Notes: generated by a model from the letters alone, not told the origin. Shown: positions 14,090 through 30,557, counted from the first letter of the stretch. The stretch: 64,000 bases of DNA from an uncultured Acidobacteriota bacterium (GCA_963702425.1 CAVPCQ010000037.1:64001-128000), one strand, 5' to 3'. Program-made: numbers and translations.

Positions 14090-17000
14090 TTACCGCAGCG
14101 GGGCCCCCGGCCCGGTGGCCAGCGGAAGGAGGATCGTGAAGCGCGCTCCCGCGCCCGGGCGGCTCTCGACCTCGATCCGCCCCGCCTGGGCCTCGACCGC
14201 CTGGCGCGCGATCGGGAGGCCCAGCCCGGATCCCGTGTCGCGCGTCGTGACGTCGGGTTCGAAGAGCTGGGACAGCCGGCCGGGGTCGATTCCGGGCCCG
14301 GTGTCCGCCACGCTGATCGCCAGCGTGCGCGGCGGCCCCTCGCGAACCGCCCACCCGACGGTGACCGTCCCGCCCGCCTCGACCGCGGCCAGGGCGTTGA
14401 GGACGAGATTGGCCAGCGCGCGGCGCAGCAGCCGCGGGTCGGCGAGAGCCGGCGGCAGGGCCGGAGGTCCCGTGGTTTCGAACCGCACTCCGGCCGGCGG
14501 GGCCAGCCGGTACGGGGCGAGCCATTCGGTGAGCAACGGGGCGAGGTCGAGCCGCTCGGGCCGCGCGGCGAACAGGCGTGCGTAGTCCGAGAACTCGCTC
14601 GAGGTCTCGCGCAGCACCCGCACCTGCTCACCGATCGTGGCCAGCGCGCGGTCGAGCACCTCGGGCAGACGCGGGTCGTCCTCGGCCGCGAGCCGGCGCA
14701 CGTGCTCGACGACGAGGCTGATCGGCGTCAGCGGGTTCTTGATCTCGTGCGCGATCCGGCGCGCCATCTCGGCCCAGGCCACGAGCCGCTCGCCGCGCAC
14801 CGTGTCCGACAGGTCCTCGACGACCACCAGCCGGGCCGGCTCGTCGTCGGTCTCGCGCGGCAGGCGGATCGTCGAGACGCGCAGGTGGCGCGTCTCGGCG
14901 TCGCGCGGCAGATCGACCATCAGGGGGGGCGTCGCATCGTCCGGCAGCGGCAGGTCCGGCGCCGCCTCGAGCAGCGCCCGCGCTTCCGGGTTGGCGGCCC
15001 AGATCGAGCCGTCTTCGCGCAGCGCGAGCACCGCCAGCGGCATGCTCGCGATCAGCCGCTCCATCGCCTCGCGCCGGCGCTCGAGACCGTCGCGCTGCGT
15101 GGCCAGGCTCGCCCCCATCGCGCGGAAGGCGCGGGCCAGCGAACGCGTCTCGTCGTAGCCCGTCTCCGGCACCGCCGTGTCGAAGGCGCCGTCGGCGATC
15201 CGTGCGGTGGCGCGCTCGAGGTCGGCCAGTGGCCGGACCAGCTTGCGCGTCGCGGGCGCGACCACCACCGCGGCGAGCAGCACGAGCAGCGCCGAGCTGA
15301 ACAGCAGCGCGCGATCGACGTCGCGCAGCTCGTCGGCCACGCGCTGCCCGGCCCGTCCGAGCGAGACGCTGACGACGCCGGTCGCCGCGCTCGGCGCGAC
15401 GAGCGGGCCGTGCGCGACCGCAGACGAAACGACGCGCCCCCCGGGTGCCCGGCGGGCCGGCTCCTCGACCAGCGACGCTCGCCCTTCGACGATCCGGCGC
15501 CACGTCGCGCCGTCGAGGCGGTCGGGGAGCAGCCCGGCGCGGACGAGGTCGGGGCGGCTCGAGGCGACCAGCGCCCCGTCGCCTTCCCAGGCGCAGACGT
15601 CGTCGTCGAGCGTCCGCGCCAGCCAGGCCGCCAGCGCGTCGTCGAGGCGCATCCCGCGCTCCCCCTCGAGCGCCAGGTAGTCCTGCAGGAAGCCGCGGGC
15701 GTAACCGACCGCGCGCGCCCCCTCGGTCGCGAGCTGCTGCGCCGCCTGGCGCGCCGCGAGCACGCGCAGCGAGACGCCGAGCGCCAGCAGCGGCACGAGG
15801 CCGGCAGCGAGCAGCAGCAGCGCGACCTGCACGCGGAATCGCCCCAGCACCCGCTGCAGTCCCTGCTCCAGCGCGGCGCCGCTCCCGCGCGGATCGGTGA
15901 CGACACGGCGCAGCGCCGCGGCGCCCAGCCCCAGCGCGACGAGCAGCGCGCCCCAGGCGACCGCCATCGCGGCGACCGCGACCGGGCGCGGCGGGAAGAC
16001 GATCACCGAGACGGTGCCGCCTCGATCGGGCAGGTCGAGGATCCGCGCCCGGCGCCCCTGGACCGGCACGGAGCGCCAGGTCGGCTCGTCGGGCGCCGCA
16101 GCGGGAGGGGGCGGGGCCGGCTCGACGTCGGAGTGAACGACGCGACGCGCGGCGTCGTACCACGCCAGCCGCGGCTCGAGGTCGGAGGCAGGCGGGTAGA
16201 GCCCGCCGTGCCGATCCGCGCCGCGGCGCGCGCGCAGCGGGTCGGTGGCCGCGAACCCGGGGAGGTTCCCCGGCGCCTCGAGGACGGCCGCGATCCAGCG
16301 GCCGCCCAGGGGCCGCGCGCGCTGCGCCAGCCGGACCCGGAAGGTCCCGCCGACGAAGGAAAGCGCGACCTGCGCCGGCCGCTCGGCCCCCGCGGCGTCG
16401 CGTCCGAGCGCGTCGAGCTGCGGAGCCGGATCGACCGGCGGGAAGCCGGTCGCGAAGGCGTCGTCGAGGTGTCCGTCCGCGTCGTACTTCCAGACCCCCG
16501 AGGCGAGTCCCTGCCGCCCGAGCGGGCTGTTCCACCAGAGGTCGATCGCGTCGCGTTCCGGCGAGAGCGAGGCCGGCCCCGGGTCGGGGCGCGTCAGGGC
16601 GAGCGTCTCCTCGAGCGCGGTGTCCCAGGCGTGATCGCGCGACGCGATCGCCGGCTCGACGCTGCCGTCGACGGCACGGACCTGGGCGCGCGGGACGGCG
16701 AGCCCGTGCGCGAGCGCCGCCAGCGCGCCCGCGCCGACGGCAGCGAGCGCGACCGTCACCCCGCCGGCGCTTCGCTCCAGCCGCGGCGCTCCCAGGCGGG
16801 CCGCCAGGACGAACGCCGCCCACACCGGGGAGGCCAGCGCCAGCGTGAGGGCGACGCGCACGCCGGTCCCGCCGCGCGGCCCGACGAGTTCCAGCAGCGA
16901 GAGACGCTCGCCGACGGTGACGGCGCCGGCGAGCGCGAGCCCGAGCGCGGCCGCGGCGAGCGCCGCGATCCCCAGCGCGCGCCGCGCGCGCGTCCCCCCC

Positions 17001-18139
17001 GGCAGCGGCGTCAGCGCCGCCACGGCGGCGAGCGCGAGGCCGGTGAGTGCCGCGCCGGCCGGCGTGTCGACCAGCGGGGCGAGCGACGCCGAATGCGCGC
17101 CCCGTCCCTTCCGCGAGCCAGCTCGCGGTCCCGATGCCGCCGACCCGCTCGAGCGCGCCCGGGGCCGCGGCCAGCGCGAGGCGCGCGGCGATCACCGCCA
17201 GCGCCGCGCCGCGCCGCACGGCCAGCGCGAAGAGGGCCAGCACAAGCGCCGCCAGCGCGGCCGCGAGCTGCGCGCGGCGGTCGGCCAGCCGGGCTCGTTC
17301 CAGCGGCGCGGGCAGCACCTCGAGCGAGACGCGCGCGACGACCTGTCCCCCCGAGGCCATCAGCGGCACGAGCGACCAGTAGGGCGCGCTCTCGGCCGCC
17401 GGGCGCGTGGGCGCCACGGGAGCGCGCACCCCCTCGCCCCAGGCCTGCCAGCGCACGCTGGCATCGACACCGGGGCCGAGGTCACCGCCGAGCGCGCCGG
17501 CCGCCGGCTCGGAGGGGAGCGGCACCTCCGCCAGCAGCACGTGCGGTGCGCGCGCGGTGCGGCGCGCGACCACGAGCCGCAACACGAGGCCGCGCCGGAG
17601 CGCGATCACCGCCGGCGGCGTCGCGAGCTGGGCGCGGAGCGCCTCGCGCTCGTCCGGCGCGAGCCGCATGCTCGAACCGGACCAGGCGACGATCGTCGCC
17701 AGGTCCGGGCCGAAGAGGACGAGTCCCGCGTCGGGACCGAGCGCGGAGCGCTCGGCGTCGAGCCAGCCGGCGATCTCGGCGTCGAGGGGGCGGCTCCCTC
17801 CGCAGGGTGGCGTCGACCGCCGAGACCAGCGCCGCCCAGTTGCGCTCGACCCCCTGCACCGCGATGGCGAGGCGCTCGTAGGGAGCGCGACGGGGGGCGA
17901 TCTCCGACTGTCCGGCGAGGCCGGCGACCACGGCGAGCAGCGCGGCGAGGCGCAGCGCTCGGCCGCGTCCCCGGACCGCGGCGAGCGCCGCGGCGGCGAG
18001 CGCGACCGAGGCCAGCCACCAGCGCCCCGACCGCAGCCCCCGGCGCGCGGGAGAGCGCGGCCAGGAGGGCGGTCGACGCCAACGCCAGCGGGAGTCCGTC
18101 GAGGACGGCGAACGGGGCCGCGCGGCGCAGGTCGTTCAT
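14090..18139 (-). CDS. Large membrane sensor histidine kinase (NtrY-like HAMP-PAS-HisKA-HATPase); N-terminal part split over several frames
   Basis: MARRIAHEIKNPLTPI H-box, NLVLNA, DTGPGI, GSGLGL; upstream coding-like segments in ORFs starting at 18139, 17931, 18203 and 17023. Confidence 0.85.
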
Positions 18140-18199
18140 CGCGAGCGGATGATAGTGCGCGGCGCGTCCAGGGAGCTTCCCGTCCCGCGCCTCCTCCTC

Positions 18200-18435
18200 C
18201 CAACGCGGAACGGCCCGCCGCGAGGCGGGCCGTTCCGGGAACTCAAGGGGGGGTGGTCAGTCGGTCGGGAAAGGAGTCGTCTCGTCCAGGCGATGGGAAA
18301 TCCCGACAAGGGGCCGAGGGTTGGGTTCCACTTGCTCGGGGCAAAGTGGGCAACGGGCTTGGCACTGCGTCGGGTTCTTAGGGCAACGGGGTCGGTTCCC
18401 CTCGAACCCCCTGTCGGGTCTTTCCGCCTTCGCGC
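18200..18435 (-). ncRNA. Candidate sigma54-dependent structured sRNA (~230 nt)
   Basis: Lies between a sigma54 promoter and a hairpin; long stem GGAAA-GA-CCCGACAGGGGG-UUCGAGGG / CCCUCGG-CCCCUUGUCGGG-A-UUUCC; no credible ORF. Confidence 0.6.
18207..18236. terminator. GC-rich hairpin, probable terminator of the leftward sigma54 transcript
   Basis: GGAACGGCCCGCC-gcga-GGCGGGCCGTTCC, 13-bp perfect stem; no clear U-tract. Confidence 0.6.
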
Positions 18436-18445
18436 TCTAGACTTA

Positions 18446-18462
18446 TGCAACGGGGATGCCAA
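18446..18462 (-). promoter_or_regulatory. sigma54 (-24/-12) promoter
   Basis: Minus strand TTGGCATCCCCGTTGCA, GG-N10-GC spacing. Confidence 0.8.
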
Positions 18463-18568
18463 GACCGTCCGAATGCCGTAAACCACTAGAGAGGCGTGAC
18501 TTGCCGCGAAACGCGGCATCGAGCCCTGCGACCCGGGGGGAGCGACGGGTGATGCATCGAGCCCGGTC

Positions 18569-18585
18569 TGTTGCGTCCTGCAACG
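18569..18585. promoter_or_regulatory. Palindromic putative enhancer (UAS) for the sigma54 promoter
   Basis: TGTTGCGTCCTGCAACG at about -134 to -150 from the predicted start; 15/17 identical to the site at 23848-23864. Confidence 0.6.
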
Positions 18586-18597
18586 CGCGCGGCCCGG

Positions 18598-23827
<5,230 letters not shown>

Positions 23828-23847
23828 GCGGTCGTTATGCGCCACTC

Positions 23848-23864
23848 TGTTGCAGGGCGCAACA
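23848..23864. promoter_or_regulatory. Palindromic operator ~20 bp upstream of the kinase-activator start codon
   Basis: TGTTGCAGGGCGCAACA; reverse complement matches 18569-18585 at 15/17. Confidence 0.6.
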
Positions 23865-23939
23865 CTTCCGGGGCGGGTGGGGAGCACGGCCGGAGGCGCT
23901 GGGCCGGGGCCGGAAAGCCCTCGAAACACGGGGCCAGGC

Positions 23940-23995
23940 AAAAAAATAGGCCCTCCGAGGAGGGCCGAACTGGTAGAGGAAAAGGAGTCAGTGAC
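23940..23995 (-). ncRNA. Candidate very short sigma54-dependent sRNA (~55 nt) including intrinsic terminator
   Basis: GUCACUGACUCCUUUUCCUCUACCAGUUC-GGCCCUC-CUCG-GAGGGCC-UA-U7 directly after a consensus sigma54 promoter. Confidence 0.55.
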
Positions 23996-24004
23996 AGTTA
24001 CATA

Positions 24005-24020
24005 AGCAATCGCCGTGCCA
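24005..24020 (-). promoter_or_regulatory. sigma54 (-24/-12) promoter
   Basis: Minus strand TGGCACGGCGATTGCT, full TGGCAC-N5-TTGC consensus. Confidence 0.8.
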
Positions 24021-24157
24021 CGTCGGGCAAAAAGGGAAGTCGAGACGGCCCAAGGGGTTGCCGTTCGGAGTGCTTCGGAATGTGGCGGGGAGGTTCTGCC
24101 AGCGTGACGCGGCGGGTCAGTCTGACGGGGCGGGCCTGACGTTCAACGGCAGCGGGG

Positions 24158-24233
<76 letters not shown>

Positions 24234-24248
24234 GATGGGAAGGGGAGT

Positions 24249-24323
24249 TGGTGGGGCGTGTAGGATTTGAACCTACGACTTCCACCGTGTGAAGATGGCA
24301 CTCTACCGCTGAGTTAACGCCCC
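24249..24323 (-). tRNA. tRNA-Val(CAC)
   Basis: GGGGCGTTAACTCAG...CCATC-TTCACAC-GGTGG...GGTTCAAATCC...CCCCACCA, 75 nt. Confidence 0.96.
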
Positions 24324-24465
24324 TGAAACCCGCGGGATTAGAACATGCGGCACCGGGACTGTCCACCAACCGCCGCCGCCGCCGCGCGTCGCGCCGGAGC
24401 GACTCCCGGCGACGCCTCGAGCGGCCGATTCGGGACTGGCGACCATTCCCCGGAAGTTGTAGATT

Positions 24466-24513
24466 TGTCAACATCTAGCGGTGATCGGGGCCGCGGCGCG
24501 CAAGATCTTGTGG
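24466..24513. promoter_or_regulatory. Tandem NrdR boxes
   Basis: TGTCAACATCTAGCGG and GCGCAAGATCTTGTGG, 32 bp apart, upstream of a ribonucleotide reductase. Confidence 0.75.
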
Positions 24514-24521
24514 TTCCCCCG

Positions 24522-24550
24522 TTGACATTGCGGAACGTCGCGGCTAATGT
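24522..24550 (+). promoter_or_regulatory. sigma70-type promoter of nrdJ
   Basis: TTGACA-N17-TAATGT. Confidence 0.6.
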
Positions 24551-24770
24551 CGCGCGCGCCGCAGGAGCCCGCGAGTGTTCCCTTTTGCCCGCGGGCAAGG
24601 GGCACCCGGGTGGGTGCGGCCGAAAGGGAGAGCCCGGGGGTCCGCGCGTCGAGGGGTGAGTTGGGGGCGGCGCCGCCGTGGCGCTGCACGGCGGCACTCC
24701 CCGGGACAACCAACAGCGGCGGAGGGCGTCCCACGCCCCCGCACGGCCATCGCTCCACGGAGGATCCAGC

Positions 24771-27605
24771 ATGTCCGTCCAGGAAACGCCTCGCGGTCCC
24801 GACAGCACGCCGCGCACCTCGACGGGCGCGAGCGCGGGCACCTATTCGAGCGGCCCGGTTCCGCGCCGCAATCGAGGCGGTTTCGCGCCCGGTCCGGGTC
24901 TCGTCGTCGAACGCCGGTTTACGGAACCCGGCGAGCAGCCGTTCGACCGGGTCGAGTGGGATCGGCGCACGGCCGGGATCAGTACCGAGAAGGGCGAGGC
25001 GGTCTTCGAGCAGGAGAACGTCGAGGTCCCGCGCTCGTGGTCGCAGACGGCGACCAACATCGTCGCCCAGAAGTACTTCCGCGGCACGCTCGGGACGCCG
25101 CAGCGCGAGCACTCGGTCCGCCAGCTGATCGGTCGCGTCGTCGGCGCCATCGTGCACTGGGGCGACGAAGGGGGCTACTTCCGCTCCGAGGTCGACTGCG
25201 ACGCGTTCCGCGACGAGCTGACCTACCTGCTGCTGCACCAGATGATGAGCTTCAACTCGCCGGTCTGGTTCAACTGCGGCGTCGAGGAGCACCCGCAGGT
25301 CTCGGCCTGCTTCATCAACAGCGTGCAGGACTCGATGACCTCGATCCTCGAGCTCGCCAAGACCGAGGGCATGCTGTTCAAGTTCGGATCGGGCACGGGA
25401 AGCAACCTGTCCGCGATCCGCTCCTCGCGCGAAGCCCTGTCGGGCGGCGGAACCGCGTCCGGACCGGTCTCGTTCATGAAGGGCTACGACGCGTTCGCCG
25501 GGGTCATCAAGTCGGGCGGCAAGACGCGACGCGCGGCGAAGATGGTGATCCTGAATGCCGATCACCCCGACATCGTCGACTTCATCGACAGCAAGGCGCG
25601 TGAAGAGCGCAAGGCGCACGTGCTGATCGACTCCGGCTACGACCCGGCCTTCAACGCGCCCGGCGGCGCCTACGACTCGGTCTTCTTCCAGAATGCCAAC
25701 CACTCGGTGCGCGTGACGGACGAGTTCATGCGCGCCGTCGCCGAGGACCGGAACTGGTCGACCCGCGCGGTGACCACCGGCGAGCCGGTCGAGACCTACA
25801 AGGCCCGCGACATGATGCGCCGCATCTCGCAGGCGGCGTGGGAGTGCGGCGATCCCGGCCTGCAGTTCGACACCACGATCAACACCTGGCACACCTGCAA
25901 AGCGACCGGCCGGATCAACGCCAGCAATCCGTGCTCGGAGTACATGTTCCTCGACGACACGGCCTGCAACCTGGCCTCGCTCAACCTGATGAAGTTCGTG
26001 CACCCCGACGGCCGGTTCGACGTCGAGGCGTTCCGCCACGCGGTCGGCATCACTCTCCTGGCCCAGGAAATCGTCGTCGACAGCGCGAGCTACCCGACCG
26101 CGCGGATCGGCGAGAACTCGTTCGCCTTCCGGCCGCTCGGGCTGGGCTACGCCAACCTCGGCGCGATGCTGATGTCGCTGGGACTGCCGTACGACTCGGA
26201 GGCGGGGCGGGCCGCGGCGGCGGCCGTGACCGCGCTGATGTGCGGCGAGGCCTACGCCACGTCGGCGCGCTGCGCGCGGGACCACGGCGGGCCGTTCGCG
26301 GCCTTCCCCGAGAACCGCGCCCCGATGCTCGAAGTCATCGCGCGCCACCGCCTGCACGCGGAGGCGCTCCCCGAGGACCTGGCCCCGCGCGCGATCCTGA
26401 CGGCGGCGCGCGACGCCTGGCGGCAGGCCGAGGAACTCGGAGCCCAGCACGGGATCCGCAACTCGCAGGTCACGGTGCTCGCGCCGACCGGCACGATCGC
26501 CTTCATGATGGACTGCGACACGACCGGCATCGAGCCCGACATCGCGCTCGTCAAGTACAAGAAGCTCGTCGGCGGCGGGATGATCAAGATCGTCAACAAC
26601 ACGGTCCCGGTCTCCCTGCGCCGGCTCAACTACTCGATCGACCAGATCCAGGAGATCCTCGACTACATCGAGGCCAACGGGACGATCGAGGGGGCGCCGC
26701 ACCTGCGCGAGGAGCACGTTCCGGTCTTCGACTGCGCTTTCCGCGCGCCGAACGGCTCGCGCTCGATCGCCTGGATGGGCCACCTCAAGATGATGGCCGC
26801 GGCGCAGCCGTTCCTCTCCGGCGCGATCAGCAAGACGGCGAACCTGCCCGAGGACGCGACCGTCGAGGACGTCGAGAAGGCGTACATCGAGGCCTGGCGG
26901 ATGGGCCTGAAGGCCGTCGCGATCTACCGCGACGGCTGCAAGCGGACCCAGCCGCTGTCGACGAGTTCCGGCACGGGGGACGCCAAGGAGAAGATCACGG
27001 CCATCGAGTACCGGCCGATGCGCCGCCGCCTCCCGGACGAGCGGCCGGCGGTGACGCACAAGTTCTCGGTCGCCGGTCACGAGGGGTACATCACGGTCGG
27101 GCTCTACCCCGAGACCCGGCAGCCGGGCGAGATCTTCGTGCTGATGGCCAAGCAGGGCTCGGTCGTCTCCGGTCTGACGGACGCCTTTGCCACCGCGATC
27201 TCGATGTCGTTGCAGTACGGCGTGCCGCTCAAGGTGCTGGTCGACAAGTACAGCCACATGCGCTTCGAGCCGTCGGGATACACGAACAGCAAGGAGATCC
27301 CGATCGCGAAGTCGATCGTGGACTACATGTTCCGCTGGCTCGCGTTGCGCTTCCTGCACGAGATGCCGGACGACAAGGCCGAGGCGAAGGCCGCGGCTGG
27401 AACCTCGGAGCGGGCCTTCGGCCTGACCCTCGAGGACGAGGCCGCGCGGGCCGATGCGCGGGCGATCGCGATGGAACACCAGGAGAAGGAGGTCTTCCGC
27501 GCCTCGTCCGATGCGCCGCCGTGTTTCGAGTGCGGCCAGATCATGGTGCGCAACGGCGCCTGCTACGCGTGTACCAACTGCGGTTCGACCTCGGGCTGCT
27601 CCTGA
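24771..27605 (+). CDS. nrdJ: Vitamin B12-dependent (class II) ribonucleotide reductase with C-terminal TSCPD/Zn domain
   Basis: FNSPVWFN, SACFI, ASNPCSEY, ACNLASLNL, APTGTI, C-terminal CFECG...CTNCGSTSGCS; GGAGG RBS. Confidence 0.96.
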   Translation: MSVQETPRGPDSTPRTSTGASAGTYSSGPVPRRNRGGFAPGPGLVVERRFTEPGEQPFDRVEWDRRTAGISTEKGEAVFEQENVEVPRSWSQTATNIVAQKYFRGTLGTPQREHSVRQLIGRVVGAIVHWGDEGGYFRSEVDCDAFRDELTYLLLHQMMSFNSPVWFNCGVEEHPQVSACFINSVQDSMTSILELAKTEGMLFKFGSGTGSNLSAIRSSREALSGGGTASGPVSFMKGYDAFAGVIKSGGKTRRAAKMVILNADHPDIVDFIDSKAREERKAHVLIDSGYDPAFNAPGGAYDSVFFQNANHSVRVTDEFMRAVAEDRNWSTRAVTTGEPVETYKARDMMRRISQAAWECGDPGLQFDTTINTWHTCKATGRINASNPCSEYMFLDDTACNLASLNLMKFVHPDGRFDVEAFRHAVGITLLAQEIVVDSASYPTARIGENSFAFRPLGLGYANLGAMLMSLGLPYDSEAGRAAAAAVTALMCGEAYATSARCARDHGGPFAAFPENRAPMLEVIARHRLHAEALPEDLAPRAILTAARDAWRQAEELGAQHGIRNSQVTVLAPTGTIAFMMDCDTTGIEPDIALVKYKKLVGGGMIKIVNNTVPVSLRRLNYSIDQIQEILDYIEANGTIEGAPHLREEHVPVFDCAFRAPNGSRSIAWMGHLKMMAAAQPFLSGAISKTANLPEDATVEDVEKAYIEAWRMGLKAVAIYRDGCKRTQPLSTSSGTGDAKEKITAIEYRPMRRRLPDERPAVTHKFSVAGHEGYITVGLYPETRQPGEIFVLMAKQGSVVSGLTDAFATAISMSLQYGVPLKVLVDKYSHMRFEPSGYTNSKEIPIAKSIVDYMFRWLALRFLHEMPDDKAEAKAAAGTSERAFGLTLEDEAARADARAIAMEHQEKEVFRASSDAPPCFECGQIMVRNGACYACTNCGSTSGCS

Positions 27606-27832
27606 TCCTCCCCCGCTGACCCTCGCCGGGCTCTCCTCCCGGCGCCCCCCAGGGGAGGGAGCCGCCGGTGCGCCGGCGGCTCCCTCTCTCTTCGGCAGCC
27701 CGCTCACCGACCGCATTCAAATCGAGCACGAATCCGTCAGGCGGTGTACCAAAACCGGGCATGGAATTCCCCGTCCTCGCCCGGCGGAACCGTAAGCGAC
27801 TTATTTGCAAGGTCTTATGGGAAGAGTCTCGC

Positions 27833-27848
27833 TGGCACGCGGGATGCT
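27833..27848 (+). promoter_or_regulatory. sigma54 (-24/-12) promoter
   Basis: TGGCACGCGGGATGCT, GG-N10-GC spacing. Confidence 0.7.
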
Positions 27849-27858
27849 CTATCCGGGG

Positions 27859-27981
27859 TGCCAGCGGACGGGAGACTGCGGGCACCGGGATGGTCCCGGG
27901 AGCTTGCGGGTCGGGCTCTCCCGTCCGCCCCTTTCACCATGGCAGAAAAAAGCGGCGGCCGAGAGGCCGCCGTTTCACTTT
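27859..27981 (+). ncRNA. Candidate sigma54-dependent sRNA (~120 nt)
   Basis: 12-bp perfect stem GCGGACGGGAGA/TCTCCCGTCCGC (27864-27875/27917-27928), CCCTTTCACC linker, terminator 27951-27981. Confidence 0.55.
27945..27981. terminator. Bidirectional intrinsic terminator
   Basis: AAAAAA-GCGGCGGCC-gaga-GGCCGCCGT-TTCACTTT. Confidence 0.75.
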
Positions 27982-28026
27982 CCGCGCTCCACGCCGGCCG
28001 GGCGGTCGTTCCCGCCCGAGCGACCG

Positions 28027-28674
28027 TCACTCGTGATCGTGGGCCAGCGCGGAGAACATCCCGGGCGCGATCCGCACGACCTGGCCGAGGCTGACCGTGA
28101 TGAGGCGGCCGGCGGTGATCGCCCGGATCTGGTGCGGCGTGTGCTGGGGGACGGTCACGCTCAGGACGTTCCCGTCGGCGGAGATCTGGTGCGGGGTGTC
28201 GCCAACCATGATCTCGAAGCTGCCCTCGACCGCGATGAAGACCTGGGGAACCTTGTGGGCGTGGGTCGAGAAGCGCGCCTCGGCGGCCTTGGCGCGCAGC
28301 AGCGCGACCTGGAAGCTGCCGTCGGGCGAGGTCGAGAGGTGGCGCAGGCTGTAGTCCGGCGACTCGAAAACGTCCTTGCGCGCCTCGATGAACGGCTGGT
28401 TGAACTCCTCGGTCGGCGTCAGGTCGTCGAAGATCGAGTGGAAGAAGTGGCGCGTGTCGTCGGAAGCCCGCGCCCGGTAAGCCGCGAAAAGCAGCTCCCG
28501 CCGGTCGAGGCCGAGCGCGTCGGCCAACCGCAGCACCACGCCGTCGCCGGGGATCTTTCCGTCGTTCTCGATCTGGACGATGTAAGGCTGGGTGACGGCG
28601 ACCTTCTCGGCCAACTGCTTTTTGTTCAGTCCCAGGCGTTCGCGGTGGAAACGGACGATCTCGGCAAAGGTCAT
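28027..28674 (-). CDS. XRE-family HTH regulator with C-terminal cupin domain
   Basis: LNKKQLAEKVAVTQPYIVQIEN HTH; HAH...EG...PHQ cupin motifs. Confidence 0.85.
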   Translation of the reverse strand: MTFAEIVRFHRERLGLNKKQLAEKVAVTQPYIVQIENDGKIPGDGVVLRLADALGLDRRELLFAAYRARASDDTRHFFHSIFDDLTPTEEFNQPFIEARKDVFESPDYSLRHLSTSPDGSFQVALLRAKAAEARFSTHAHKVPQVFIAVEGSFEIMVGDTPHQISADGNVLSVTVPQHTPHQIRAITAGRLITVSLGQVVRIAPGMFSALAHDHE

Positions 28675-29240
28675 GGCGGTGACCCCCCTCGCGGAAACTG
28701 TTGGTAAGGCACTAGCAAGTTAGCCGAAGAGCGCGCGATGAGTCAAGCCTGGTCAGACGAGAAAATTAGGCAGCCGGGTAAGCCCCGGAGAGCGCCGGGT
28801 TACGGCGCGATTCCCTCGGCTAAGCCAGTCGGCGCCGGAGGGGGACGCCGACAACGCCCGGCGCGCCCGAGGAGCCCCCGCGAACGCTTCGTGACGCCAG
28901 CGAACAAGCGGCCCCTCGCGCCGCACGGCCTCGACCATCGTCCCCGGCGGACGAGCGCGGCGATTGCTTCGATCGAGCCGCGGGGCGGGAAATCGCGGCG
29001 CGGCAGCGGCACCTGGCGCGTGAATCGTCCGGGCCACGGCTTCCAGGGCCGCCGCGAAGCGTAAGGGGCGGCAAAACCGCAAACCCGAAACTCCGGCAAG
29101 CAACTCGACCGCGACCGGTTTCTCGAGCCGGTCGAGGTCCTCGCGGAACTCGCGCGCGCACCAGGGGGCCCTCGAGGCGTGATCCTCTATACTGCCCCGC
29201 TTTGGGGCCGCCTCCGCGGCCCGTGCGGGAGCCTTGAAGC

Positions 29241-30557
29241 GTGTCGAACGTCGCGGTGATCGGGGCCCAGTGGGGCGACGAAGGGAAGGGGAAGATCGTC
29301 GACTTCCTCGCCCCCCACTTCACCATCGTGGCGCGCTACCAGGGCGGCCCGAACGCCGGCCACACCGTGGTCTTCGGTGGCGTGCGCCATGCGTTGCACC
29401 ACATCCCGTCCGGGATCTTCCACGACGGCGTGCTCTGCCTGATCGGCGGCGGCGCGCTGGTCGATCCGGACAAGATCCTCGAGGAGATCGACGGGCTGCG
29501 CGCCGCGGGGATCACGCCCGAGGGGCGGCTGCGGATCTCTTCGCGCGCGCACGTGATCCTGCCGCTGCACCGCGAGCTGGACGCGGCGAAGGAGCTGCGG
29601 CTCGGCGCGGCGGCGATCGGGACCACGAAGAAGGGGATCGGCCCGGCCTACGGCGCGAAAGTGGAGCGCTGGGGCGTGCGGCTGATCGACCTCGCCGACC
29701 CGCCCGAGGTGGCCGACCGGCTGCAGCACGCGCTCGACGCCGGCCTCGCGGACTGGCTGCGGGTGCTCGACGCGAAGATCCCCGACCTGGACCAGGTCCA
29801 ACGGCAGGCCGCGGCGTGGTGGGAGCGGCTCGCACCGTTCGCAGGGAACGTGCGAAGTGCGCTCTCCGGCGCGCTCGGCAGCGGGGCCCCGATCCTCTTC
29901 GAGGGCGCGCAGGGGGCGCTGCTCGACGTCGATTTCGGCACCTACCCGTTCGTCACCTCGTCGAGCACGATGGCCGGCGGGATCCCGGCCGGCCTCGGTG
30001 TGCCGCCGCGGGCGGTGGAAAAGGTGATCGGCGTCTCCAAGGCCTACGCCACGCGCGTCGGCAGCGGGCCGTTCCCGACCGAGGACACCGGGACGGTGGG
30101 CGCGGCACTCCGCGAGCGCGGCCACGAGTTCGGGACCACCACCGGCCGGCCACGGCGCTGCGGCTGGTTCGACGCGGTCGCGATGCGGCTGGCGGTCGAG
30201 GTCAGCGGACTCGACGCGATTGCGCTGACCAAGTTCGACGTGCTGTCGGGGCTCGACCCGATCCGCCTGGCCGTGGCCTACGAGATCGACGGGGAGCGCC
30301 GGACCGAGATGCCGCTGACCGCCAAGGAGCTGGCGCGGGCGATCCCCGTCTACGAGGACTGGCCGGGCTGGGCGGAGGAGGTGCGCGGCGCCCTGCGCCT
30401 GGCGGACCTGCCGCGCGCGGCCCGCCGGGTGCTCGATCGGATCGCCGAGATCTCGGGGACGCCGGTCGGGATGATCTCGACCGGACCGGACCGCGAGGAG
30501 ACGATCGTGGTCGAGGGGCTGGTGCAGGAGATCGTGGAGGCCGGGGGCCGCCGGTGA
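29241..30557 (+). CDS. purA: Adenylosuccinate synthetase
   Basis: GAQWGDEGKGK, GPNAGHT, EGAQG, GTYPFVTSS, TTGRPRRCGWFD. Confidence 0.97.
   Translation: MSNVAVIGAQWGDEGKGKIVDFLAPHFTIVARYQGGPNAGHTVVFGGVRHALHHIPSGIFHDGVLCLIGGGALVDPDKILEEIDGLRAAGITPEGRLRISSRAHVILPLHRELDAAKELRLGAAAIGTTKKGIGPAYGAKVERWGVRLIDLADPPEVADRLQHALDAGLADWLRVLDAKIPDLDQVQRQAAAWWERLAPFAGNVRSALSGALGSGAPILFEGAQGALLDVDFGTYPFVTSSSTMAGGIPAGLGVPPRAVEKVIGVSKAYATRVGSGPFPTEDTGTVGAALRERGHEFGTTTGRPRRCGWFDAVAMRLAVEVSGLDAIALTKFDVLSGLDPIRLAVAYEIDGERRTEMPLTAKELARAIPVYEDWPGWAEEVRGALRLADLPRAARRVLDRIAEISGTPVGMISTGPDREETIVVEGLVQEIVEAGGRR

Follow-up and report, generated by a model that had tools for sequence, protein, structure and literature searches.

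Why should one 64,000-nucleotide stretch of an uncultured Acidobacteriota genome (GCA_963702425.1, CAVPCQ010000037.1:64001-128000; the whole of this stretch is called the window below) carry three sigma-54 promoters, each followed by a short region free of open reading frames (ORFs), in the neighborhood of a gene that joins a Ser/Thr kinase to a sigma-54 activator? An earlier note on this DNA took the three promoter-hairpin combinations, here units 1, 2 and 3, for a possibly undescribed family of sibling small RNAs (sRNAs) that block ribosome-binding sites (RBSs) as the output of that activator. The analysis reported here gives a divided answer. Units 1 and 2, the kinase-activator gene that they flank, the palindromes at the ends of that gene and the leader of a lipoprotein operon farther along the same contig appear, by their sequences, to form a single conserved module, which resembles the Qrr/LuxO system of Vibrio quorum sensing in its layout and is not a member of that family. 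With a probability that we would put at about 0.6, units 1 and 2 are trans-acting sigma-54 sRNA genes controlled by the activator and repressing the lipoprotein operon. Unit 3, by the same kind of evidence, is a separate new structured sigma-54 RNA, putatively under another activator.

With one mismatch or none, TGGCAC-N5-TTGCW is found exactly three times in the window, each time between genes and at the very places where promoters had been proposed, and 74 times in the whole assembly (5.1 Mb, 71% GC). After each of the three sites there is indeed an ORF-free stretch closed by a hairpin, as had been claimed, and Pfam finds no domain in the ORFs overlying units 1 and 3. Reading along the window, unit 1, the activator gene, unit 2, tRNA-Ala and tRNA-Val all point to the left, nrdJ and unit 3 point to the right, and an HTH-cupin gene converges on unit 3. 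The GG-N10-GC core of the promoter is retained in 13 of 13 genomes examined for unit 1 and in 11 of 11 for unit 3, while the unit 2 promoter is conserved in all 12 aligned genomes, with a variable spacer between promoter and seed. This conserved core in its TGGCAC/TTGC context, in a genome that encodes RpoN (G000:C6:152698-153171, G000 being the window's own genome), is the combination by which an RpoN promoter is recognized here; hfq is present as well. In Rfam 15, searched over window positions 16000-30500 at E up to 1, units 1-3 are unmatched and just two tRNAs lie above the gathering score (unit 3 reaches 24.8 bits against BASRCI337, where the gathering score is 229). The units of three other genera (L042-L044) likewise give no Rfam match at E up to 0.1, in keeping with the suggestion that these RNAs are undescribed.

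All three units are conserved, and mostly syntenic, within one Acidobacteriota family, with promoter, RNA body and position maintained over 10-12 genera. By covariance model, 21 of 23 family genomes have unit 2 and likewise 21 of 23 have unit 3, and blastn finds unit 1 in 20 of 22 family relatives and in none of 18 genomes outside; the match in G014 is only 25 nt of terminator. The unit 3 model finds nothing in 96 other genomes. The unit 2 model gives weak matches in 5 of 96 class genomes outside the family (E 5.7e-4 to 9e-3), and these were not counted, four of them being the terminator part alone and one a weak full-length match. The genomes searched are a sample, and absence outside the family holds among those searched; the tallies include one unpublished genome, G034, counted as no-match only. 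An exact-pattern scan of a species collection returned 18 stretches, 13 of them in Acidobacteriota records of metagenome-assembled genomes (MAGs); the five in Spirochaetota, Planctomycetota, Marinobacter (two) and Oscillospiraceae were taken as chance. The activator gene has unit 1 on one side and unit 2 on the other in all 11 loci fetched from other genomes. In nine of these 11, and in G006 too, unit 3 comes next after nrdJ; it is located elsewhere in G015, and in G005 the contig ends. Two genomes have lost parts of the arrangement. G014 (99% complete) is without unit 2, without a real unit 1 and without a lipoprotein homolog, and a search for the activator gives generic AAA+ matches alone and no full-length ortholog; unit 3 is kept. 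G006 (L097, L052; C1:726000-740000) has unit 1, the lipoproteins and their leaders, unit 2 was not found there, and its activator is a 131-residue C-terminal remnant, 69% identical, beside unit 1. Promoters, the seed in units 1 and 2 and the RNA bodies are conserved across the family, with the compensatory base-pair changes described below. These sequence comparisons put the observation far from chance and support the view of units 1-3 as conserved, undescribed sigma-54-promoter RNA genes.

In the unit 2 region the conserved part is exactly that which runs from the promoter through the terminator (blastn, 40 relatives, query 131-215). The alignment shows little or no variation in the promoter hexamers, CTCCTTTTCCTCTACC and the terminator stem, and CTCCTTTTCC and TACC are invariant across 20 copies; between genera, the sequence of the terminator stem varies. 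The terminator itself (GGCCCTCC-TCGG-GGAGGGCC, then T7, in the window) is strong, with 6-9 U in 20 of 20 copies. The sigma-54 start is predicted near 23994, and the pairing region thus begins only a few bases from the 5' end of the RNA. A single-stranded conserved seed, a U-tailed Rho-independent terminator and a conserved complementary mRNA site are the features of an Hfq-type sRNA, and unit 2 has all three. Some genera outside that of the window carry it more than once: G020 has two copies 170 nt apart (L101:1173-1413) with their own sigma-54 promoters and differing terminators, a second and weaker match adjoins the first in G010 and G012, and in G021 the two copies are on separate contigs. 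The tandem copies are, to judge by these features, true siblings.

The much longer unit 1 begins with an invariant GCGAAGGCGGAAAG at its predicted +1 and is dominated by a long-range stem, CCCGACARGG/CCYUGUCGGG, which closes a domain of about 130 nt and shows compensatory changes at 7 of 18 consensus pairs (19 sequences). Downstream of the seed lies a terminator, GGCCCGCC...GGCGGGCC, followed by a U-run outside the window's genus and by none within it. The seed, read by eye, is (A)CUCCUUU(U)CC or near to it in 15 of 20 genomes (CUCCUGAUCC in G004). The motif GACTCCTTT(T)CC, said to be common to units 1 and 2, is present in both as stated, and a CUCCUUUUCC seed is common to most copies of the two. 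The seed is all that they share, and neither is a duplicate of the other. The gene that comes after unit 1 (window 18139-18175, minus strand) starts 8-10 nt past a conserved CTATCATCC/CTATGATCC box, which is found at the same position in L041-L051.

With what might such a seed pair? G000 has nine copies of the sequence CTCCTTTTCC, one of them in unit 2 itself and three antisense to the RBSs of tandem lipoprotein genes. When 56,852 candidate start regions were scanned for duplexes, the lipoprotein gene at 144801 ranked first (-35.9 kcal/mol). The lipoproteins belong to no Pfam or NCBIfam family, and their Atlas matches, at most 0.83, are labeled just 'hypothetical protein' or 'lipoprotein'; homologs are found in 21 of 22 family genomes and in 1 of 18 others. 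One contig bears both the sRNA locus and the lipoprotein cluster in G004, G003, G007, G009, G008 and G017, with 13-42 kb between them. Seventeen lead genes (14 genomes, 7 genera) are preceded by a sigma-70-like promoter and by a leader in which three boxes, A, B and C, are conserved (Table 1). In unit 2 there is complementarity to two of the boxes, to C over the stretch that begins at the Shine-Dalgarno (SD) sequence and stops 2-5 nt short of the start codon, and to B, with the mRNA between them looping out. This two-block pairing is predicted for every one of the 15 cognate pairs, with energies of -30 to -49 kcal/mol where shuffled sRNAs give about -20 kcal/mol (standard deviation about 3.5), and box B together with the flank between SD and start extends it to 24-28 nt, well past the SD. 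The sRNA and the mRNA show compensatory changes at three positions and wobble transitions at a fourth: the pair beside the seed is A:U in g1 and g5, G:C in g4 and g6, and G:U or G:C in g12; one box B pair is U:A in g1 and C:G elsewhere, and its neighbor is G:C, G:U or A:U; and a further pair differs in g6 (C:G vs. U:A). The box B columns of two G015 leaders are unreliable in this comparison, the box B anchor having been misplaced.

Unit 1 is also complementary to the SD of box C, and the stretch after its seed is complementary to box A. In the window's genus this second match is reached by a fraction of at most 0.003 of random genomic segments for five of five leaders, with compensatory changes at the species level (CCCGAC/GUCGGG in G000 vs. 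CCUGAC/GUCAGG in G004); it is less clear in G015a (fraction 0.015). Box A, as AGAAAGGGGGU, shows complementarity of its own, one G:U included, to the 16S rRNA 3' end of the assembly, CACCUCCUUUCU, and it is speculation on our part that it might be a standby site. Two distinct 16S 3' ends with differing flanks are present (G000:C11:281516 and C20:87380), which would fit either the 5.85% estimated contamination or two rRNA operons. The suggestion of a seed that blocks RBSs has thus gained a conserved complementary mRNA site at an RBS, with predicted pairing, and an anti-SD seed that is family-wide.

The gene between units 1 and 2 is intact in G008, where its ortholog is one ORF of 1748 codons with Pkinase, AAA_16, TPR, GAF, Sigma54_activat, AAA_lid and HTH_8 domains. 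Its Sigma54_activat (E = 4e-68) and HTH_8 (E = 7e-16) matches in the window are those of a bacterial enhancer-binding protein (EBP). No Response_reg (receiver) domain was found in it by Pfam, and it reaches none of the NCBIfam equivalog cut-offs; against the LuxO model NF041946 it scores 271.4 bits where the cut-off is 800, and it gives higher scores with the NorR, NifA and NtrC models. All 12 genomes examined have TTGCA-N3-TGCAA (at most one mismatch) 105 to 132 bp upstream of the unit 1 promoter, in the window as GTTGCGTCCTGCAAC with extra half-sites next after it. A second palindrome, 157 to 217 bp downstream of the unit 2 promoter and about 20 nt before the kinase start, is likewise found in 12 of 12. 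The stricter pattern GTTGC-N5-GCAAC occurs eight times in the genome, two of them at the activator gene. At the kinase start the layout is conserved: TTGCxx, which is the upstream half-site, then 17 nt, then CATAAG, with the start codon 5-8 nt further on. This looks like the sigma-70-type promoter of a leaderless gene with an operator overlapping it, an arrangement that would suggest autorepression. Judged by such boxes, both genes, that of the kinase and the one following unit 1, look leaderless and seem to have promoters of their own. Of the claim that the RNAs are the output of the kinase-linked activator, the part that concerns units 1 and 2 gains from these conserved palindromes, which link them to the gene, but unit 3 is without such a site near its promoter.

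Taken together, these elements suggest a circuit of the following kind. A protein of about 1750 residues, made up of a Ser/Thr kinase, STAND ATPase, TPR, GAF, sigma-54 AAA+ and Fis-type HTH, would bind the palindromes at both ends of its gene, would from there switch on both RNAs, and would probably also repress its own sigma-70-type leaderless promoter. Both RNAs would expose the single-stranded CUCCUUUUCC seed, which resembles the 16S rRNA 3' end; unit 2 would pair from its 5' end with boxes C and B of the lipoprotein leader, and unit 1 with box C and, in at least three genera, with the SD-like box A. Such pairing, which Hfq might assist, would hide the RBS and lower lipoprotein synthesis. 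What the sequences show is the conservation of promoters, seeds, structures and synteny, conserved complementarity and phyletic co-occurrence; transcription, dependence on sigma-54 and on the activator, repression and the role of Hfq we infer.

A number of results weigh against this circuit. In the scan of start regions, spurious GC-rich regions reach -35.2 kcal/mol, barely below the top-ranked gene, and the paralog at 142775 is only about 17th. The cognate pairs of G000b and G002 are matched or beaten by at least one shuffle. Cognate pairing holds at 9.6 of 12 variable positions and cross-genus pairing at 9.1, a gap so small that the covariation rests on few positions and related genomes; we regard it as suggestive, not decisive. 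The unit 1 seed is UCCUUGG or UCCUCUG in G009, G018, G020, G013 and G010, the match of unit 1 to box A is marginal in g4 (fraction 0.083) and not significant in the five leaders of g5, g6 and g3 (0.57-0.81), and box B was not found in 20 further paralog upstream regions from 9 genomes. There is no palindrome upstream of the unit 2 promoter, the sole candidate enhancer being downstream. Lastly, the activator gene is frameshifted in the window, with two overlapping frames that switch at 21436-21476. Contigs of three DNA runs are each one base shorter at 21437-21443 (X1, n=1; X3, n=1; X4, n=5), from which it follows that one base too many is present in the window, owing to a strain-specific frameshift or to a mistake of assembly. 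In G004 and G003 the frame switches elsewhere, and nrdJ is broken up as well, which suggests that these assemblies are error-prone.

Four other explanations have to be set beside the circuit. Were the promoters chance matches in GC-rich spacers and the RNA genes illusory, one would point to the shuffled window, which has a mean of 0.74 pattern matches and which in 3 of 100 shuffles likewise gave three; conservation of promoter, RNA body and position in so many genera, with compensatory base-pair changes, makes this barely credible. Units 1 and 2 could instead be cis-acting leaders or attenuators, unit 2 of the kinase-activator gene and unit 1 of the gene starting at 18139. Both do lie directly upstream of a gene on the same strand, the unit 1 hairpin is without a U-run in the window's genus, and a single transcription unit could include the palindrome that lies between unit 2 and the start of the kinase gene. 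On the other side stand the strong U-tailed terminator in every unit 2 copy, the U-tailed unit 1 terminators of other genera and the conserved -10-like box that each of the two genes has 5-10 nt before its start, and the most conserved letters of the RNAs are those complementary to a distant mRNA; we consider a cis role quite improbable.

It is also conceivable that the RNAs are real and the leader is not their specific target, the RNAs serving as a general anti-SD mimic on many strong-SD mRNAs or binding a protein. The seed does resemble the 16S 3' end, the other occurrences of its complement are RBSs of unrelated genes, the background of the target scan is high, and the test of cognate vs. 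non-cognate pairs is weak. But the pairing reaches beyond the SD through box B and the flank before the start codon, box B is conserved in the leaders of 7 genera with no other explanation, the sRNAs and the lipoproteins are lost together in G014, and the lipoprotein cluster is near the sRNA locus in each of the six genomes checked, all of which leads us to think this explanation unlikely. The RNAs might, alternatively, pair with the leader and activate it, by opening an inhibitory fold or by protecting the mRNA; the computed data would fit either direction of the effect, and the SD-like box A might serve as a standby site. However, the pairing covers the SD and ends 2-5 nt from the start codon, and ten leaders fold weakly and share no consistent hairpin that would hide the SD, which favors repression; activation appears to us a distinctly poor prospect. 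The preferred reading is still that of two sRNA genes which, under the activator between them, repress the lipoprotein operon.

Unit 3 does not belong with the other two. Its long hairpin has 25 consensus pairs, six with compensatory changes (16 sequences), and its tail is CU-rich yet not conserved: the motif CCCTTTCACC attributed to it is present in the window, but conservation in other genera is absent. From 300 bp upstream of its promoter to 250 bp downstream, no TTGCA-N3-TGCAA was found, and, as already mentioned, it persists in G014. Pairing of the tail with leader box A was tried and rejected, being significant in 0 of 11 leaders (fractions 0.11-0.96), and with it the idea that all three RNAs act on one leader was dropped; the description of unit 3 as a sibling does not hold. 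A different motif, CGAAT ... GTAC, recurs about 90-110 bp upstream of the unit 3 promoter (window 27700-27830 and relatives, by eye), and may be the site of another activator. A bolder picture would make the circuit private to one Acidobacteriota family, with a megaprotein that reads LuxO-type sites and drives two unrelated sRNAs clamping boxes A-C, box A being a standby site and the box A-like bulge of unit 3, GGGUCGGGC, a decoy for the box-A arm of unit 1 under a second activator; we offer it as a doubtful guess.

Table 1. Predicted features of the sRNA locus and of the lipoprotein leader (window coordinates unless another contig is given).
Feature	Position	Strand	Remarks
Unit 1 RNA, ~230 nt (predicted)	18205-18435	-	fold z = -3.3
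Unit 1 terminal 13-bp hairpin	18207-18236	-	
Unit 1 stretch complementary to leader box A	~18248-18268	-	
Unit 1 single-stranded seed, GACUCCUUUCCC	18267-18278	-	
Unit 1 5' structured domain	~18299-18435	-	
Unit 1 sigma-54 promoter, TGGCATCCCCGTTGCA	18446-18461	-	pattern match
Palindrome GTTGCGTCCTGCAAC, putative EBP site	18570-18584		~122 bp upstream of unit 1 promoter
Pkinase-AAA_16-TPR-GAF-sigma54-HTH_8 activator gene	18598-23828	-	Pfam; two frames here
Palindrome GTTGCAGGGCGCAAC	23849-23863		21 nt upstream of kinase ATG, ~158 bp downstream of unit 2 promoter
Unit 2 RNA, ~55 nt (predicted)	23940-23994	-	fold and terminator
Unit 2 U-run	23940-23946	-	
Unit 2 terminator stem	23949-23966	-	
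Unit 2 5' pairing region, UGACUCCUUUUCCUCUACCAGUUC	23967-23990	-	
Unit 2 sigma-54 promoter, TGGCACGGCGATTGCT	24005-24020	-	perfect pattern match
Unit 3 sigma-54 promoter, TGGCACGCGGGATGCT	27833-27848	+	pattern match
Unit 3 RNA (predicted)	27859-27983	+	fold z = -5.0
Unit 3 long hairpin	27864-27928	+	
Unit 3 invariant bulge GUCGGGC	27910-27916	+	
Unit 3 two-way terminator	27953-27972		shared with convergent HTH-cupin gene
Tandem lipoprotein genes	G000:C37:142775-146466		~15 kb past the window's end
Leader box A			CCAGAAAGGGGGUCGGU..GUCG
Leader box B			GAGUUGGUAGAGAGACGGUAACC; ~30 nt upstream
Leader box C			GGAAAAGGAG(U/C)CAUUCA-AUG; Shine-Dalgarno to start codon

Other sigma-54 promoters of the genome were seen in passing. 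At G000:C18:108967-108982 (minus strand), outside the window, a perfect sigma-54 promoter is followed by about 55 nt and a U-run terminator, a further sRNA-like unit unrelated in sequence to units 1-3, and in four paralogous genes at G000:C25:16019-18087 and C28:52117-55795 the sigma-54 promoter and leader are almost the same (CGGCACACGCCTTGCT ... ATGAGACGCGCTGGCATCTGG). Within the window, the spacer between tRNA-Val and the beginning of the class II ribonucleotide reductase gene is about 440 nt long (24330-24770); Rfam yields nothing there at E up to 1, a cobalamin riboswitch included.

How does this locus compare with systems that are already known? In Myxococcus, which belongs to a phylum rich in Ser/Thr kinases and sigma-54 activators, the sRNA Pxr is made from a sigma-54-type promoter beside a sigma-54 activator gene; for the present RNAs a specific leader target is predicted, and units 1-3 match no Rfam family. 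The enterobacterial MicL, RybB and MicA are short sigma-E-dependent sRNAs of the envelope-stress response that use 5' seeds and repress lipoprotein or outer-membrane-protein mRNAs at the RBS. They differ from the present RNAs in depending on sigma-E, whereas sigma-54 with an activator is predicted here, and their sequences are unrelated. In layout the locus resembles Qrr and LuxO, where again a sigma-54 activator gene adjoins the sRNA genes, there are multiple sRNAs with a shared seed that pair at RBSs (as is predicted here), and the sRNA copies may stand in tandem, as they do here in some genera. Units 1-3 match no Rfam family, the Qrr family (which we take to be RF00378) included. The activator here differs from LuxO in being without a receiver domain and in having a kinase-AAA_16-TPR-GAF input, and the phylum, the class of target (lipoproteins) and the two-block pairing also set the locus apart. 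The likeness extends to the DNA sites. In both systems one site overlaps the promoter region of the activator itself. A chromatin immunoprecipitation sequencing study lists LuxO sites at qrr1-4 as TTGCA-N3-TGCAA, with half-sites and spacing identical to those found here (PMC10328515). AbcR1/2 and NfeR1 of alpha-rhizobia are reported to have similarly CU-rich anti-SD seeds, and CJnc230 of Campylobacter to be transcribed in dependence on RpoN, as is predicted here; they show no homology to the present RNAs and have other regulators and targets. For Acidobacteriota, a search at the level of titles and abstracts found no published description of regulatory sRNAs of this kind.

What is new here, on the evidence of sequence comparison, is the two-block complementarity between unit 2 and the leader, itself conserved, of a lipoprotein operon specific to the family. 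The three units would make three new RNA families that could be added to RNA databases, with better annotation of these MAGs as a result. The locus as a whole presents what may be a complete and testable circuit in uncultured sediment bacteria, comprising an unusual sensor-activator, its putative DNA sites, two sRNAs and a mapped candidate target with natural compensatory variants. In it, the logic of Qrr and LuxO, with the same DNA half-sites, would have a kinase/STAND/GAF input in place of a phosphorelay.

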